From a phage, in sequence record PZ445526.1: DNA of 64,000 nt; one strand, 5' to 3'. The notes below the pieces were generated by a model, which saw nothing but the letters and a program-made list of their open reading frames with translations, was not told the origin of the DNA and did no database searches. Shown piece by piece: positions 36,859 through 41,500 of the stretch; position 1 is the first letter of the stretch, and each line of letters begins with the position of its first letter. The translations under genes were made by a program, and so were the position numbers.

Positions 36859-37035
36859 TTATACTCCGGATAGTTTGTAAACTATTTCAACATCGCCTTT
36901 TGCTGCTTTATAACCTTCAGCCCAAGATACAACCGAGTTTTTATCTGAAGATTCAAATTCTGGCATTGGGCTTTCGCCAATGTTCACGCAGTATGTTTCT
37001 TCATTTTCGTCGAACCAAATAATTAAAGTAGTCAT
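36859..37035 (-). CDS. hypothetical protein (58 aa)
   Basis: Hand-translated MTTLIIWFDENEETYCVNIGESPMPEFESSDKNSVVSWAEGYKAAKGDVEIVYKLSGV; below track cutoff. Confidence 0.35.
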   Translation of the reverse strand: MTTLIIWFDENEETYCVNIGESPMPEFESSDKNSVVSWAEGYKAAKGDVEIVYKLSGV

Positions 37036-37103
37036 TTATTTCTCCGTTTCTGTATTTGTTTTGATAAGTCTATAATAACACCGTCCTTGGTGTTTGTACA
37101 CAA

Positions 37104-37367
37104 TTATTTCATATTATTGAAATATTCTTCTGCAATTTCGTCGTTATCATGGTAAACTTTAGAAGACAGTTTAACATAACCTTCAGCAGTGAACATGTTA
37201 ATCACAACCTTTACAGTATACCACTGACCATCTTCATTACCCATTACTGCATAGGTTTCAAACATCGGATGGTCAGGACCGATAACTTTAATATCATTCA
37301 CTGTACGACCAAAATCTTCTGAAACACATTTCATAAAGAAGTTGAACAGTTCGCCGTAATTATCCAT
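37104..37367 (-). CDS. hypothetical protein
   Basis: 87 aa from ATG (MDNYGELFNFF...); GGAGAATAAAATG RBS; track start is TTG. Confidence 0.45.
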   Translation of the reverse strand: MDNYGELFNFFMKCVSEDFGRTVNDIKVIGPDHPMFETYAVMGNEDGQWYTVKVVINMFTAEGYVKLSSKVYHDNDEIAEEYFNNMK

Positions 37368-37410
37368 TTTATTCTCCAAGTTGTTTTCTGTATCAGTAGT
37401 TGATATTGAT

Positions 37411-37440
37411 ATAGTACCATGGAAGAACAGGGATGTAAAC
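37411..37440 (-). promoter_or_regulatory. T4 early promoter cassette
   Basis: Minus strand GTTTACATCCCTGTTCTTCCATGGTACTATATCAATATCAAC. Confidence 0.55.
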
Positions 37441-37569
37441 AGTTTTGTGAAAAATTTTTTAAAAAGTTTTGGGGAATTCTAGGGCAGGGAGGGGCAATTA
37501 AAGGATAGGATAATATATTATAAAGGATAGAAACTAAATGATGCCTAGAGAGGCCCAGAAAGGTCTAGA

Positions 37570-37598
37570 TGCCAAAAAGCCCTATCATTTAGATAGGG
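37570..37598 (-). terminator. rho-independent terminator
   Basis: CCCUAUC-UAAAU-GAUAGGG hairpin followed by CUUUUUGG, directly after the 37607 stop. Confidence 0.55.
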
Positions 37599-37606
37599 AT
37601 TTAAAA

Positions 37607-38173
37607 TTATTTGCTTAGTTTAGTTATTATAGCTTCTGCGGCAGCTTTTAGCTTAGATGCGGTGTTAATACGATTTTTAATTTCAGTATACGCATCGCCA
37701 AGAACATCAAGGCTATCAGAATAAACACTTACACTATTGCGTTCGCTATTTGAAATAGAACCTTTAGTTTTACGATCAAAATCGGTGTATACGTCTTGAA
37801 GATCGCGTGCTGCCTTCTTTGCATCATCCAATGCATCAAGAGCTTTATTCAAAGCATTAACGTATTTTTTAGTATCGAACATATTCTTAGAAATTTTAAC
37901 AGGCGCACGTTCAGGAGTAGCTAAGGCAGATTTAGGAAGAACCTGTTTGCCAGATGCCAGTTTCTTAGAAATTTTGAAAAACGCTTTATTGAAATTATTT
38001 TCTTGACTCATCGTAAAAGAACTATTATCAATGTTATACATTTCAATAGCTTTAGCTTTCCACTTAAGAAAATCGCCACGGTCTTTTGGGTCCAAGTGGA
38101 AGAATACTTTAGTAAGATCTGCTTCAGATGGTAATTTTGCTGCTTCGGTTAAAAATTCGGCATAGGTTTTCAT
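37607..38173 (-). CDS. internal-protein-like virion protein with capsid-targeting leader
   Basis: 188 aa; N-terminus MKTYAEFLTEAAKL resembles the T4 IP leader. Confidence 0.5.
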   Translation of the reverse strand: MKTYAEFLTEAAKLPSEADLTKVFFHLDPKDRGDFLKWKAKAIEMYNIDNSSFTMSQENNFNKAFFKISKKLASGKQVLPKSALATPERAPVKISKNMFDTKKYVNALNKALDALDDAKKAARDLQDVYTDFDRKTKGSISNSERNSVSVYSDSLDVLGDAYTEIKNRINTASKLKAAAEAIITKLSK

Positions 38174-38247
38174 TTAAAATCCTTGAAATAATTTATTGGT
38201 TATTAATTATTTATTATCCGTAACAGCATTCTCTGAGTGATTCAAAC

Positions 38248-38277
38248 TAAAAAGCCCCAACCTTTCGGTCAGGGCTA
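38248..38277 (-). terminator. rho-independent terminator closing the tRNA/stable-RNA unit
   Basis: 10-bp stem (AGCCCUGACC/GGUUGGGGCU with two G-U pairs), GAAA tetraloop, then UUUUU. Confidence 0.65.
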
Positions 38278-38587
38278 AGCCTTGCGGCAACCTTGTCGGG
38301 GTTCCACCTGCTAAGGCAAGTGTTTGTACGAAACGCCGGGACTTGAACCCGGTTATTAAGTAGTTGACGCTACTCAATATTTTTAAAAGGCCATATCTCG
38401 ACCATATCCGAACGTTCCGTCAAAAACGCTACTCGGCTTACGGCAAAGATATTTCCTCGAATCGATAATTCGGTGCGCCGTTTCTGCTGTGATGTAAGGG
38501 GATATTAACAAATCGTAAAGATTTATTAAGACCAGTCCTTACTCAGGGAACATCAGTCCGACGACTTACCGGTAGCGACCCGGTTTC
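38278..38587 (-). ncRNA. candidate structured stable RNA(s), possibly counterparts of T4 species 1/2 RNAs
   Basis: No ORF of 60 aa or more on either strand; tRNA-like T-arm CCGGGUUCAAGUCCCGG at 38336-38352 with possible acceptor pairing CGGAACG/CGUUUCG; adjacent to tRNA cluster and followed by strong terminator. Confidence 0.4.
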
Positions 38588-38938
38588 TTAATATTCTTTT
38601 AAAGCATCAATCTGTTCACGGCGTTTACGCCATAAATCAATTGCTTCATACGCGGATTCAGCATTTCGAATTGGTCGGCATTTATGTAAAGACTTGTGAT
38701 TTTGATATTTTGTAGATAATGGAATTTTATCTAAAAGGTCTTTACGTTCAAAGTATTCGTAACCATCTAAACCAAATGAACGATTTTTGAGAAATTGCCA
38801 ATGACCATATTCGTTTTGGATGTAAATATAATCCGCGTGTTGATAAAGCAAATTAGTTTCACGAGATGAGATATGGTTTTCATATTCATTGAAGTAAAAT
38901 GTTAAATCATGAACTACTAAATAAACATTACCTTTCAT
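38588..38938 (-). CDS. hypothetical protein
   Basis: 116 aa ORF between the stable-RNA region and tRNA-Arg. Confidence 0.45.
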   Translation of the reverse strand: MKGNVYLVVHDLTFYFNEYENHISSRETNLLYQHADYIYIQNEYGHWQFLKNRSFGLDGYEYFERKDLLDKIPLSTKYQNHKSLHKCRPIRNAESAYEAIDLWRKRREQIDALKEY

Positions 38939-38956
38939 ATTTTCCTCACTTATAAT

Positions 38957-39032
38957 TGGTCGAGGCAGTAGGGATCGAACCTACGACCCAGGACTTAGAA
39001 GGTCCTTGCTCTTCCTTCTGAGCTATGCCTCG
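38957..39032 (-). tRNA. tRNA-Arg (anticodon UCU)
   Basis: Hand-folded cloverleaf: acceptor CGAGGCA/UGCCUCG, anticodon loop CUUCUAA, T-loop GGUUCGAUCC, encoded CCA. Confidence 0.8.
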
Positions 39033-39036
39033 GATT

Positions 39037-39111
39037 TGGCGGACGTGATAGGATTCGAACCTATAACCAATCGCTTAACAGGCGATCGCTCTGCCATTGA
39101 GCTACACATCC
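39037..39111 (-). tRNA. tRNA-Asn (anticodon GUU)
   Basis: Acceptor GGAUGUG/CACGUCC, anticodon stem AUCGC/GCGAU with loop CUGUUAA, T-loop GGUUCGAAUCC, encoded CCA. Confidence 0.75.
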
Positions 39112-39115
39112 AAAT

Positions 39116-39202
39116 TGGTGGGGAGTGATGGAGTCGAACCACCCGAGTCGCAATGACAATGGATTTACAGTCCACACCGCTACCTCTACGGGATAACTCC
39201 CC
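39116..39202 (-). tRNA. tRNA-Tyr (anticodon GUA), long variable arm
   Basis: Acceptor GGGGAGU/ACUCCCC, anticodon loop CUGUAAA, long extra arm, T-loop GGUUCGACUCC, encoded CCA. Confidence 0.7.
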
Positions 39203-39212
39203 CAAATTAATT

Positions 39213-39287
39213 TGGTGGCCCTGGGTGGAATTGAACCACCATCTGGCGATTATGAGTCGCTTGCTTGAACCTTCCAGCTACAGGGCC
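39213..39287 (-). tRNA. tRNA with CAU anticodon (T4 tRNA-Ile counterpart, or Met)
   Basis: Acceptor GGCCCUG/CAGGGCC, anticodon loop CUCAUAA, T-loop GGUUCAAUUCC, encoded CCA; same position as T4 tRNA-Ile. Confidence 0.7.
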
Positions 39288-39288
39288 T

Positions 39289-39364
39289 TGGTGCTGATTG
39301 ACGGAATCGAACCGCCGACCTTCTCATTACAAGTGAGTTGCTCTACCTACTGAGCTAAATCAGC
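39289..39364 (-). tRNA. tRNA-Thr (anticodon UGU)
   Basis: Acceptor GCUGAUU/AAUCAGC, anticodon loop CUUGUAA, T-loop GGUUCGAUUCC, encoded CCA. Confidence 0.75.
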
Positions 39365-39369
39365 AAAAC

Positions 39370-39459
39370 TGGCGGAGGCGATAGGATTTGAACCTATGAG
39401 TCGCCGGAGCGACTGCCGGTTTTCAAGACCGGTGCATTAAACCACTCTGCCACGCCTCC
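39370..39459 (-). tRNA. tRNA-Ser (anticodon UGA), long variable arm
   Basis: Acceptor GGAGGCG/CGCCUCC, anticodon stem CCGGU/ACCGG with loop CUUGAAA, long extra arm, encoded CCA. Confidence 0.75.
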
Positions 39460-39461
39460 AG

Positions 39462-39535
39462 TCTCCGTGGCAGGATTTGAACCTACGACATTCTGCTCCC
39501 AAAGCAGACGCTCTACCAAACTGAGCTACACGGAG
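39462..39535 (-). tRNA. tRNA-Pro (anticodon UGG), CCA not encoded
   Basis: Acceptor CUCCGUG/CACGGAG, anticodon stem UCUGC/GCAGA with loop UUUGGGA; 3' end reads ...GAGACUGG. Confidence 0.75.
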
Positions 39536-39545
39536 TAAATTAAAT

Positions 39546-39619
<74 letters not shown>

Positions 39620-39624
39620 AAATT

Positions 39625-39711
39625 TGGTGCGAGAAGTGGGACTCGAACCCACAAGGAAATCATTCCGCAGCATTTTAAGTGCTGTGCCTTTACCAATTTG
39701 ACCATTCTCGC
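39625..39711 (-). tRNA. tRNA-Leu (anticodon UAA), long variable arm
   Basis: Acceptor GCGAGAA/UUCUCGC, anticodon stem CAGCA/UGCUG with loop CUUAAAA, long extra arm, encoded CCA. Confidence 0.75.
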
Positions 39712-39712
39712 G

Positions 39713-39785
39713 CTGGGAATAAAGGACTCGAACCTTTGCATCCTGGAATCAAAATCCAGTGCCTTACCAACTTGGCTAATTCCCA
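39713..39785 (-). tRNA. tRNA-Gln (anticodon UUG), CCA not encoded
   Basis: Acceptor UGGGAAU/AUUCCCA, anticodon stem CUGGA/UCCAG with loop UUUUGAU, T-loop GGUUCGAGUCC. Confidence 0.75.
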
Positions 39786-39882
39786 ATTATTAACAAAGGC
39801 TCTCTAACAAGAACCCTTGATGATAGAGGGTATTAATCAGTGCGGTATGAGTTAATAATAACAAATAATTCTTAAAGCATAT

Positions 39883-40170
39883 TTACCATTTATGATGATA
39901 CATACTTACGATGCATTCAAGACCCAAAGGATTCTTGAAAATATCATATTCAAGAGGACCTTTTTCTGTTTCAATAAAGAAATCAAAATTTACTGTATTA
40001 AATTTACGGTCTTCCTTTACTAATTTAACTTGAGAAGATGAACGGTCAATGTAAACCCTTTCAACTTCAAAACATGTTAAAATGCCATAATCATCAATCA
40101 AGGCTTTAGCCGCGGATTGATCATATTTATATCCATTTTCAATGGATGATACTTTAGCATAAAGAATCAT
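39883..40170 (-). CDS. hypothetical protein
   Basis: 95 aa ORF. Confidence 0.4.
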   Translation of the reverse strand: MILYAKVSSIENGYKYDQSAAKALIDDYGILTCFEVERVYIDRSSSQVKLVKEDRKFNTVNFDFFIETEKGPLEYDIFKNPLGLECIVSMYHHKW

Positions 40171-40172
40171 TA

Positions 40173-40583
40173 TCAGCCTCTATCAACGATAGTATGAGTA
40201 TGGGCATTTACGATTTGCCACCAGTCGAAACGATTGGAACCATAATCTGGTTTATTTTCATTTTCTTTAATGATATCACGCAGCTTATCTTCTGTTTCAG
40301 CATACGCAATTAAATCATCATATCCACCACAAGGATAATAATTATCACCTGCGAATAAAAGAAAATTTACCTTAGATGGATTTACGTAATAATGGTCTTT
40401 AGGATATTTAGTTCCTCTCCAATCAGTTACTTCAACATAACGGTAAGAAAATCCATTTTTACTTTCAATCCAACTCCACGCTTCAAAAGGAGTATTAAAA
40501 ACTTTATCAGGTATTAAATTACCTTCAAAATGAGAAGGATTTGCATAATCCCCGGCATAAACATAATATTCGTTAATACTCAT
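40173..40583 (-). CDS. hypothetical protein
   Basis: 136 aa ORF, Tyr/Trp-rich. Confidence 0.45.
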   Translation of the reverse strand: MSINEYYVYAGDYANPSHFEGNLIPDKVFNTPFEAWSWIESKNGFSYRYVEVTDWRGTKYPKDHYYVNPSKVNFLLFAGDNYYPCGGYDDLIAYAETEDKLRDIIKENENKPDYGSNRFDWWQIVNAHTHTIVDRG

Positions 40584-40769
40584 TTATTCACCTTTAGAAA
40601 TTTTATCCATAACGATAGCGATTAAACCAATTAAAAATGCTACTACAAGTGAAAACACATTTTCTGCTGTAGTTAATAATCCGCATATAAATCCAGCAAA
40701 CATTGAAAAACTAAAAGCGGAAGCAGAAATTGCAATAGCAACATTTCGAATTAATTCACAGCGTTTCAT
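40584..40769 (-). CDS. small membrane protein
   Basis: 61 aa from ATG (MKRCELIRNVAIAISASAFSFSMFAGFICGLL...); track extension is translated promoter/5'UTR. Confidence 0.45.
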   Translation of the reverse strand: MKRCELIRNVAIAISASAFSFSMFAGFICGLLTTAENVFSLVVAFLIGLIAIVMDKISKGE

Positions 40770-40797
40770 TTTATTCTCCTCAGTAGTTGATAGTGTA

Positions 40798-40827
40798 ATA
40801 GTATCACAACTAAAACCGCATGTAAAC
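40798..40827 (-). promoter_or_regulatory. T4 early promoter cassette
   Basis: Minus strand GTTTACATGCGGTTTTAGTTGTGATACTATTACACTATCAACTACTGAGGAGAATAAAATG. Confidence 0.55.
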
Positions 40828-40830
40828 AAT

Positions 40831-41055
40831 TTATTCAACACCAGCGGCTTTCAAAAGTTTCTTAAGATTGGCAACACCTTGAGCAGAAAATGTGACCTTG
40901 CCACCTTTTTCACTGATAGAACCAACCAATTTAGCAAGTTTATCATTAGGAATTTTTTTAAAATCAGCCAATGTTCCATCAAAGGTTTTTGAAACAAAAG
41001 GCAGTTCATCTTCATGTCTTTTAGCTTCTACAATAAATTTTTGATATGTTTTCAT
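40831..41055 (-). CDS. internal-protein-like virion protein with capsid-targeting leader
   Basis: 74 aa from ATG: MKTYQKFIVEAKRHEDELPF...; own early promoter. Confidence 0.55.
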   Translation of the reverse strand: MKTYQKFIVEAKRHEDELPFVSKTFDGTLADFKKIPNDKLAKLVGSISEKGGKVTFSAQGVANLKKLLKAAGVE

Positions 41056-41091
41056 TTTATTCTCCAATTTCACATTTGTTTTGATAGGGTA

Positions 41092-41121
41092 ATAGTATCA
41101 CTACCCCATCTAAAAGTAAAC
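41092..41121 (-). promoter_or_regulatory. T4 early promoter cassette
   Basis: Minus strand GTTTACTTTTAGATGGGGTAGTGATACTATTACCCTATCAAAAC. Confidence 0.55.
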
Positions 41122-41131
41122 AGTTTATAAA

Positions 41132-41440
41132 CTATTTTATTCCGCGTGATGCAATTGTGTTCTGTCGTTTAACACCAGTTTGTTTAAAGTCATGATTGTC
41201 GATTTGATCGGTACGAGCAACTCCGAATGATGATTTGATCTTAGCTTTAGATCCTTTAGTTATAGAAATAAACATCTCAGAAGCCCCTTTCTTAAAGTCC
41301 GAGGCGATTACTTCAACGCCGTTCTTAGCAAGTGACTTCAGAATTGCCTCCGCGTATTCATCGTCAAGACTTGCCTGAGTATTAATAACGAATGTCTTTG
41401 GCGCAGCCGCTTCATTGATAAATTCTTTAAATGTTTTCAT
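41132..41440 (-). CDS. internal-protein-like virion protein with capsid-targeting leader
   Basis: 102 aa: MKTFKEFINEAAAPKTFVINTQ...; own early promoter. Confidence 0.55.
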   Translation of the reverse strand: MKTFKEFINEAAAPKTFVINTQASLDDEYAEAILKSLAKNGVEVIASDFKKGASEMFISITKGSKAKIKSSFGVARTDQIDNHDFKQTGVKRQNTIASRGIK

Positions 41441-41470
41441 TTTATTTTCCTAATTAATTTTGATAGGGTA

Positions 41471-41500
41471 ATAGTATCACTACCCTATTTAAAAGTAAAC
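41471..41500 (-). promoter_or_regulatory. T4 early promoter cassette
   Basis: Minus strand GTTTACTTTTAAATAGGGTAGTGATACTATTACCCTATCA. Confidence 0.55.

Follow-up and report, generated by a model that had tools for sequence, protein, structure and literature searches.

Comparing sequences and predicted folds, we found that the minus strand of positions 38278-38587 is made up of the orthologues of the T4 genes rnaD and rnaC (positions refer to the window, i.e. the whole 64,000-nucleotide stretch of phage record PZ445526.1 that was analyzed). Taken as a whole, the locus is very probably explained as the rnaD and rnaC orthologues closing a T2-type tRNA cluster, with rnaC being released in a tRNA-like manner. 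Sequence orthology, synteny, the terminator and the covariation-supported folds of both RNAs were computed in this analysis. The two RNAs are already known in T4-like genomes, having been known from T4 since the 1970s as small stable RNAs and being annotated there, and as they are textbook T4 features, their presence in a T4-like genome is expected. A sequence-only reading of the interval had likened it to processed stable RNAs such as the T4 species 1 and 2 RNAs, which proved literally correct, and had treated it as one structured region, which had to be revised: the interval consists of two RNA genes and a trailer.

The locus at the end of a T2-type tRNA cluster

Searching by megablast with positions 38180-38960 returned 762 phage records, nearly all Tequatrovirus, infecting Escherichia, Shigella, Yersinia and their relatives, and the genome is thus that of a Tequatrovirus (T4-like). 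On the minus strand, ARAGORN and Rfam detected 10 tRNA genes at 38957-39785, running Gln, Leu, Gly, Pro, Ser, Thr, Met, Tyr, Asn, Arg; this layout is the T2-type form of the T4 cluster that PMC2330249 describes. In the T4 RefSeq record (NC_000866) the equivalent stretch carries two misc_RNA features directly after tRNA-Arg, namely rnaD, recorded as 'species 2 RNA' (71053-71171), and rnaC, recorded as 'small, stable RNA; species 1 RNA' (70908-71046). Alignment with T4, proposed earlier as a check, led to exactly these annotated genes, the window aligning base for base with T4 rnaD, the 6-nt spacer, rnaC, the trailer and the terminator. Identity to T4 was 136 of 139 nucleotides (97.8%) for rnaC and 103 of 116 (~89%) for rnaD, with the rnaD differences clustering in its apical part. 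T4 rnaC occupies the same place after rnaD, has the same trailer and terminator ahead and the same predicted fold, and differs at three positions: two T-loop bases (UUCAAGU here, UUCGAAU in T4) and one base of the long arm are substituted. In T4 rnaD the 5' hairpin, the P2 stem and the core are identical, whereas the apical hairpin has diverged.

The context upstream differs from T4. The cluster here is of the T2 type with the trna.2 ORF, whereas T4 has the segB layout. The trna.2 ORF of 116 aa (38588-38938) lies between tRNA-Arg and rnaD as in T2L and RB68, and was identified as T2L 'trna.2' by published primers #24/#25, which match its two ends; the RB68 layout (tRNA-Arg, 116-aa ORF, rnaD, rnaC) is that of the window, and rnaC and rnaD are annotated at the same stretch in RB68, RB3 and other GenBank records. 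T4 rnaD starts 1 nt past tRNA-Arg, whereas here the 5' end of rnaD overlaps the end of a protein ORF, the first three rnaD bases being the stop codon of trna.2. Given that trna.2 between tRNA-Arg and rnaD is a known variant of this locus, the assignment of rnaD stands.

Comparative support for a cloverleaf-like fold of rnaC

The rnaC (species 1 RNA) orthologue is 139 nt long (38465..38327, minus strand), and its limits and its tRNA-like four-way junction follow from the T4 alignment and from a covariance model, R1. We built R1 from a MAFFT alignment of 14 sequences, for which RNAalifold gave a consensus fold of 40 pairs, 17 of them compensatory. The model scored the window rnaC at 175.4 bits and T4 rnaC at 176.4 bits, and gathered 29 distinct sequences in which 45 pairs were 97.8% paired and 24 showed changes on both sides. 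Moving the partners by 1-3 columns as a control lowered pairing to 37-52%. The 29-sequence alignment was fitted to R1 and leans towards the model, and the independent MAFFT result agrees with it; covariation for both rnaC and rnaD was counted on sequences and not on independent events. RNA folding, one of the checks suggested by the sequence-only reading, likewise favored structure over shuffled sequences, the z-scores being -4.5 (rnaC part), -3.0 (rnaD part) and -6.05 (whole region). Together, comparison over at least eight genera makes a cloverleaf-like four-way junction a well-supported prediction for rnaC.

The junction is closed by an acceptor-like stem, in which CGAUUCG (positions 2-8 of rnaC; 38458..38464) pairs with CGUUUCG (positions 131-137; 38329..38335), followed by UA, the mature 3' end of rnaC in the T4 annotation. 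These 7 bp (C2-G8 with C131-G137) were 100% paired in the 29 homologues and include two invariant U.U as well as one covarying pair, A4-U135 to G4-C135. A different acceptor, CGGAACG with CGUUUCG, had been proposed from the single sequence; it does pair there, but the homologues have A.C in 16 of 29 cases, with further mismatches of U.U, C.U and U.C, and we rejected it on these grounds; covariation pairs CGUUUCG with the 5' end of rnaC itself. CGGAACG is part of helix 5 in the long arm, a helix that was 100% paired with four covarying pairs. This long arm (positions 9-78, 70 nt; 38388..38457) takes the place of the D arm and consists of three helices separated by internal loops, with compensatory changes in most of its 17 pairs and loop 1, UUGACG (positions 43-48; 38418..38423), at its tip. 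An A-rich linker leads to arm 3 (positions 87-112; 38354..38379), a 10-bp stem in the place of the anticodon arm, with covariation in eight of nine counted pairs and a 6-nt loop 2, CGUCAA (positions 97-102; 38364..38369). The T arm, CCGGG UUCAAGU CCCGG (positions 114-130; 38336..38352), abuts the acceptor 3' strand. That CCGGGUUCAAGUCCCGG on the minus strand (38352..38336) represents a real T arm, as read earlier from the letters, was borne out by its stem, which covaries among the homologues (G-C, U-A, U.G). Of the nine copies of the T-arm core GGTTCRANTCC in the window, against 0.15 expected by chance, eight lie in tRNA genes and one in rnaC.

Like canonical tRNA (RF00005), rnaC has a four-way junction in which a 7-bp acceptor-like end stem abuts a 5-bp T stem with no linker, as well as a T loop of 7 nt (UUCRANU in most genera), and its setting is a tRNA operon. 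It differs from tRNA in that it has no D arm, with the 70-nt long arm standing there, and no anticodon loop; in arm 3 a 10-bp stem carries a 6-nt loop, as opposed to the 5 bp and 7-nt loop of an anticodon arm, and the acceptor holds two U.U. For the 3' tail, most genera, the window included, encode G-U-ACA-A in place of CCA, and Marfavirus encodes G-U-CCA-A. In Kanagawavirus and Winklervirus the T loop is non-canonical (UGCAUGC and UGCAUCC), indicating that strict tRNA-like tertiary folding is not conserved. None of the 10 tRNAs called by ARAGORN falls in the interval, and RF00005 gave no match there at E values up to 10. The suggestion of a degenerate tRNA therefore holds only insofar as rnaC is tRNA-like, with ARAGORN and the Rfam tRNA model both silent. 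Conversely, R1 matched genuine tRNAs weakly (13-25 bits) through their acceptor and T arms, ARAGORN made spurious tRNA calls of 95-96 nt within two rnaC homologues, and the T arm of rnaC is almost the same as the one in tRNA-Gln of phage Moon.

The covariance-model search that had been proposed yielded no Rfam family for rnaC or rnaD, either at the gathering threshold or at E values up to 10, and returned chance-level matches and a T-arm fragment only. The fragment, the only Rfam similarity in the interval, was a 17-nt T-arm match to mascRNA-menRNA scoring 15.3 bits against a gathering threshold of 42.5. The tRNA-like domain of tmRNA and mascRNA/menRNA are tRNA-like RNAs released by RNase P. 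They resemble rnaC as proposed here in that a mimic of acceptor and T arm gives a non-decoding RNA its processing handle; mascRNA/menRNA and rnaC are not homologous, and their host kingdoms differ. A tmRNA was also considered for the locus and rejected, as ARAGORN found neither a tmRNA nor a tag reading frame and Rfam gave no tmRNA match.

A candidate kissing contact between two rnaC loops

The two 6-nt loops of rnaC, UUGACG and CGUCAA, are exact complements over all 6 nt in 29 of 29 sequences. Both are invariant in all genera except Marfavirus, while the stems below them change freely, and in the Marfavirus clade both have changed, to UUGGCG and CGCCAA, with the six pairs all retained. Among random loops of equal size and composition such a 6-nt complement arose in 0.13% of trials. 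The predicted energies of the loop-loop duplexes were -5.5 and -7.6 kcal/mol, and the half-changed states differed in that G.U would be tolerable (-4.9 kcal/mol) and A.C would not (-0.4 kcal/mol). BLAST from four family members in search of further changed rnaC loops returned the Marfavirus clade only. Based on this single evolutionary double change and the invariance elsewhere, we rate it as probable, by a modest degree, that the loops form a 6-bp kissing contact. Such a contact could form within one rnaC molecule or between two; in the intramolecular case, the long arm would have to bend sharply to meet arm 3. HIV-1 TAR/TAR* and ColE1 RNA I/RNA II are fully paired 6-nt kissing loops, and the rnaC loops resemble them in being complementary at every base. 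They differ from these pairs in that both lie on one 139-nt RNA and in that their contact is a predicted one. A contact of this kind has the merit that its loss and rescue could be engineered with two point mutations. The fold of rnaC or the complementarity of its loops may have been noted in papers of the 1970s-80s.

Two pairings between the RNAs were compared by eye and dismissed. That of the rnaD P1 loop CGCUAC with GUAGCG of rnaC is not conserved, the loop differing in phage A73, which has no rnaC, and that of rnaD GUCGUC with rnaC GACGA fails in Marfavirus.

Comparative fold of rnaD

The rnaD (species 2 RNA) orthologue of ~120 nt (38591..38472, minus strand) was delimited by the T4 alignment and scored 145 bits with its own covariance model, R2. 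It begins with the P1 hairpin, ACCGG GUCGCUA CCGGU (38568..38584), predicted by the minimum free energy fold and showing covariation in four of five pairs across the family. The main domain (38473..38565) is made up of the P2 closing stem, a conserved core and a variable apical hairpin. P2 has 7 bp, formed by GUCGUCG with CGGCG-C-AC. In the core, GACUGAUGUUCCCUG stands opposite AUCACAGCAGAAAC; these strands are nearly invariant and carry an invariant CCC bulge. The apical hairpin has been swapped in other phages for unrelated sequences with insertions and deletions, and the variant found in the window is well paired and differs from that of phage BW-1. Across 19 sequences, aligned by fitting to R2 and hence leaning towards the model, 23 pairs were 93.3% paired and 13 were compensatory, including a G-C to C-G change in P2. 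By these comparisons rnaD is a family separate from rnaC, with an invariant core. The spacer GAAUUA (38466..38471, minus strand; 6 nt), mapped from the T4 annotation, separates the two RNAs.

Two known motifs that rnaD calls to mind were set aside. The hammerhead-like elements CUGAUG...GAAAC have flanks that pair as P2, so that stem I and a strand for the cleavage site are missing; the hammerhead core has U instead of A at position 9, and Rfam gave no match. The box C/D (k-turn) elements CUGAUG/CUGA share one strand, separated by 6 nt, and come in the wrong order.

Transcription and proposed processing

Downstream of rnaC lies a 3' trailer of 50 nt (38277..38326, minus strand), which the T4 annotation leaves out of mature species 1 RNA; it is 94% identical to that of T4 and contains a conserved hairpin, CACUUGC CUUA GCAGGUG, at 38322..38305. 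The unit of the tRNA cluster ends in an intrinsic terminator (38248..38276, minus strand) with a 10-bp stem (6 G-C), a GAAA loop and TTTTT; one pair of the stem covaries. The 10-bp GAAA-tetraloop terminator had been recognized earlier from the letters, and we located its hairpin and T-run at 38276..38253, directly 3' of the interval. In T4, a middle promoter located shortly before tRNA-Gln drives transcription of the cluster into a ~1.75 kb precursor, whose end lies past the species I gene (PMC2330249, citing Broida and Abelson). In the window, sequences resembling a MotA box with a -10 element occur upstream of tRNA-Gln (~39881, minus strand) and again inside trna.2 (~38852), both as consensus matches only. 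PMC9697503 and PMC3014915 describe the mature products as small, stable and late, without an assigned function, and T4 RNAC was checked by Northern blot (PMC9697503).

The ends of mature rnaC annotated in T4 fall 1 nt 5' and 2 nt 3' of the acceptor-like stem. From this geometry and the T4 annotation we infer that rnaC may be cut out like a tRNA by way of its acceptor-like stem and T arm. Abutting without a linker, the two would present a minihelix of the kind that RNase P recognizes, and the ends would fit cleavage by RNase P at the 5' side followed by trimming by a 3' exonuclease. The GAAUUA spacer would then be the leader removed at the 5' end of rnaC, and what remains between this cut and the gene before it would be rnaD, a structured RNA with its ends guarded by P1 and the P2 closing stem.

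Distribution and modularity of the two RNAs

Database searches found the rnaC-containing region in ~760-800 phage records and rnaD in 735. Using BLAST from several members, we traced rnaC to Tequatrovirus, Karamvirus (PG7), Kanagawavirus, Kagamiyamavirus (EcS1), Winklervirus, Gelderlandvirus, Moonvirus and Marfavirus. All rnaC homologues are located inside, adjoining or just downstream of tRNA clusters and on the same strand, in the middle of the cluster in some genera and at its end in others. R2 revealed diverged rnaD copies, scoring 20-39 bits, within tRNA clusters of Moonvirus, Kanagawavirus and related viruses, and a copy of 61 bits in Marfavirus. Escherichia phage A73, which belongs to Vequintavirinae, a different phage family, has a clear copy of 99 bits after its tRNA-Met. 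Several lineages (L006, L037, L038) carry rnaD without rnaC, indicating that the two RNAs are independent modules. At a junction lacking rnaC, the gene appears as a clean cassette: ...GCGCACCGAA / UUAUCGA...CGUACAAA / CACUUGCC...

The interval had no blastn match in 5,426 complete E. coli genomes. A loose rnaC pattern occurred at no fewer than 120 loci; of 76 new ones among these none scored as rnaC with the model, the sole model match reaching 20 bits, as expected by chance or from tRNA likeness. The rnaD core pattern matched a single genome, a Massilia MAG, and this match was dismissed as chance in a G+C-rich sequence without the 3' half.

Possible functions of rnaC and rnaD

The function of rnaC and rnaD is a question of about 50 years' standing, still described as unknown in 2010, 2022 and 2025 (PMC3014915, PMC9697503, PMC12685909). 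In phage BW-1, a convergent SNP of host adaptation was mapped to the rnaD region, and virulence rose alongside it from 0.17 to 0.98; its authors saw no clear structural effect and called the function of rnaD unknown (PMC12685909). Placed on the family model and read on the transcribed strand, the SNP is an A to G change in the apical hairpin of rnaD (CACAGUUUUACU[A]UG to CACAGUUUUACU[G]UG) that turns a C.A mismatch into a C-G pair. The G allele was present in all related sequences checked, seven distinct ones, made up of six loci (three scoring identically) together with KNP1 and AugustSocin, and the A allele occurred over 61 nt in only 5 of 148 database records. By RNAfold, BW-1 rnaD with A loses the consensus fold (-25.9 kcal/mol) and with G recovers it (-31.0 kcal/mol). 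The data suggest that the fold of rnaD matters for growth on some hosts, and rnaD would thus act in a host-dependent manner that requires its fold. The three BW-1 lines may share a standing variant rather than carry independent mutations.

Given that some lineages lack rnaC and that the T4 tRNA region is non-essential (PMC2330249), any function would be accessory. As arms with complementary loops replace the D and anticodon arms, rnaC cannot decode. Its body may be held together by the loop-loop contact, and the role that we consider the most likely, though with considerable doubt, is that of a tRNA mimic binding a host or phage factor that recognizes tRNAs. Somewhat less likely is that both RNAs work purely in cis, as elements for the processing or stability of the tRNA operon whose excised pieces are stable by-products. 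They would give RNase P a place to enter and would protect 3' ends by their structure, setting the order of tRNA maturation or shielding the mRNAs of neighboring ORFs. The position of both RNAs at the tRNA clusters, on the same strand, would fit this, as would an acceptor and T-arm handle of the kind RNase P requires and the dispensability of the region in T4. A processing handle, however, would have no need of the rnaC loops and the CCC-bulge core of rnaD, which are invariant or covary across genera, and the placement of rnaC in the middle or at the end of the cluster depending on the genus, the independent occurrence of the two RNAs and an adaptive SNP in the rnaD apical hairpin, far from any processing site, speak against it as well. 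We consider it improbable that the conserved loops target host or phage mRNAs by base pairing in trans. Short invariant loop sequences are there, and PMC9697503 and PMC12685909 loosely name these RNAs small regulatory RNAs; yet the rnaC loops complement each other and change together, leaving almost no conserved single strand free, processing as annotated in T4 removes the U-tail of the terminator and with it the usual 3' handle for Hfq, and no target came to light.

That the locus is made up of degenerate tRNA genes or of inert, functionless spacer is very improbable. The T arm and acceptor-like stem do look tRNA-derived, as the likeness to the Moon tRNA-Gln T arm and the ARAGORN calls in two homologues illustrate, and some lineages are without rnaC. 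Against decay, 24 of 45 rnaC pairs and 13 of 23 rnaD pairs, arms unlike those of tRNA included, have been kept through double changes, which across genera are the signature of selection on structure, and rnaC has remained 97.8% identical to T4 while the apical region of the adjacent rnaD has diverged far more. A coding function is harder still to credit. As the sequence-only reading had stated, no ORF of 60 aa or more exists on either strand of 38278-38587, the longest overlapping ones having 56, 42 and 34 aa, and several GenBank records do annotate a CDS or hypothetical proteins here. Besides falling short of 60 aa, two of these three ORFs start with TTG, and they span the terminator or the boundary of rnaD and rnaC; the substitutions compensate base pairs, the apical segment of rnaD is swapped with insertions and deletions in relatives, and the T4 curators annotated RNAs at this place.

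Bringing the two RNAs together, we consider it possible, though well short of probable, that they are two distinct families of structured RNA, conserved far outside T4 and serving as host-specific infection factors; rnaC would be a tRNA-derived scaffold locked by the kissing contact, which stands in for the decoding half of a tRNA, and rnaD a family marked by its invariant CCC-bulge core. Were this so, they could be, e.g., decoys or ligands for host defense directed at tRNA or RNA, and a single restored base pair in the apical hairpin of rnaD would suffice to turn the semi-permissive E. coli ECOR34 into a permissive host. The rnaC scaffold would then be shared by at least eight genera of Tevenvirinae, and rnaD would be common to Straboviridae and Vequintavirinae. 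The comparative folds of both RNAs, the kissing candidate and the modularity make the question of function more testable, and with the BW-1 SNP re-read as the repair of an rnaD pair, ECOR34 would be a host in which an rnaD phenotype is measurable.

An rnaD homologue outside the T4-like phages and a variable position in rnaD

Exploring the loci of related phages, we found an rnaD homologue scoring 99 bits with R2, the covariance model of rnaD, in Escherichia phage A73 (Vequintavirinae; L034, 1490-1593), directly 3' of a tRNA-Met. The homologue is clear, and A73 belongs to another family than the phage studied here. Its core is identical to that of T4, and in its 5' hairpin P1 pairing is kept through C-G to U-A changes. 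A search for rnaC at this A73 locus did not find it. In the window, a plus-strand terminator-like match at 38568-38584 is the antisense of the P1 hairpin with T-rich sequence after it, and is probably not a terminator.

A convergent adaptive SNP has been described in Escherichia phage BW-1 (PMC12685909). The SNP, at position 164264 of OR125554.1 (L168) and by equivalence at about 38511 of the window, maps to the apical hairpin of rnaD, where the change regains a C-G pair. The ancestral allele, A, is the rare one at this site, found in 5 of 148 records.

The trna.2 ORF and promoter-like sequences upstream of rnaD

Between tRNA-Arg and rnaD lies a minus-strand ORF of 116 aa (38588-38938; family phrog_3355) that T4 does not carry. 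Both of its ends match primers #24 and #25 of PMC2330249, which on sequence grounds identifies it as the 'trna.2' ORF of T2L. Its TAA stop codon (38590-38588) shares bases with the 5' start of the rnaD homologue. When the other genes of the cluster were scored with the tRNA model of Rfam, which has a gathering score of 29, tRNA-Tyr(GTA) (39116-39202, minus strand) reached only 30.2 bits; the remaining nine tRNAs scored 59-74 bits.

Two minus-strand MotA-box-like sequences, in which TGCTTTA is followed after about 12 nt by a -10-like hexamer, were detected, one upstream of tRNA-Gln (~39881) and one within the trna.2 ORF (~38852); judged by its sequence, the latter could be a separate promoter for rnaD and rnaC. 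The T4 late-promoter consensus TATAAATA has a sole minus-strand match within 37001-41500, at 40124-40131. In the related loci L006, L014, L025 and L037, TATAAATA lies immediately downstream of the U-run of the terminator; at this place the window carries TTTTTAGTTTGAATC.

Insertions downstream of the rnaC terminator

Relative to T4, the window carries an insertion at this position: a minus-strand ORF of 188 aa (37607-38173; phrog_2280), with its own terminator at 37598..37580, separates the rnaC terminator from the sequence that comes immediately after it in T4. In the related loci L002, L008, L009, L012, L013 and L017, the 3' half of the trailer and terminator is present twice, the second copy about 600 nt downstream, and the two copies flank an inserted ORF. 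The site following the rnaC terminator looks, from these arrangements, like a hot spot of gene-cassette insertion.

Annotation of the rnaC/rnaD locus

ARAGORN calls tRNAs of 95-96 nt within two rnaC homologues, 'tRNA-Phe' in L021 (7816-7911) and 'tRNA-Met' in L028 (8491-8585). In GenBank, rnaC carries the label tRNA-OTHER in some records, and in many others rnaC and rnaD are covered by CDS features named 'hypothetical protein'. Such tRNA calls, labels and CDS features look like systematic misannotations of the locus.
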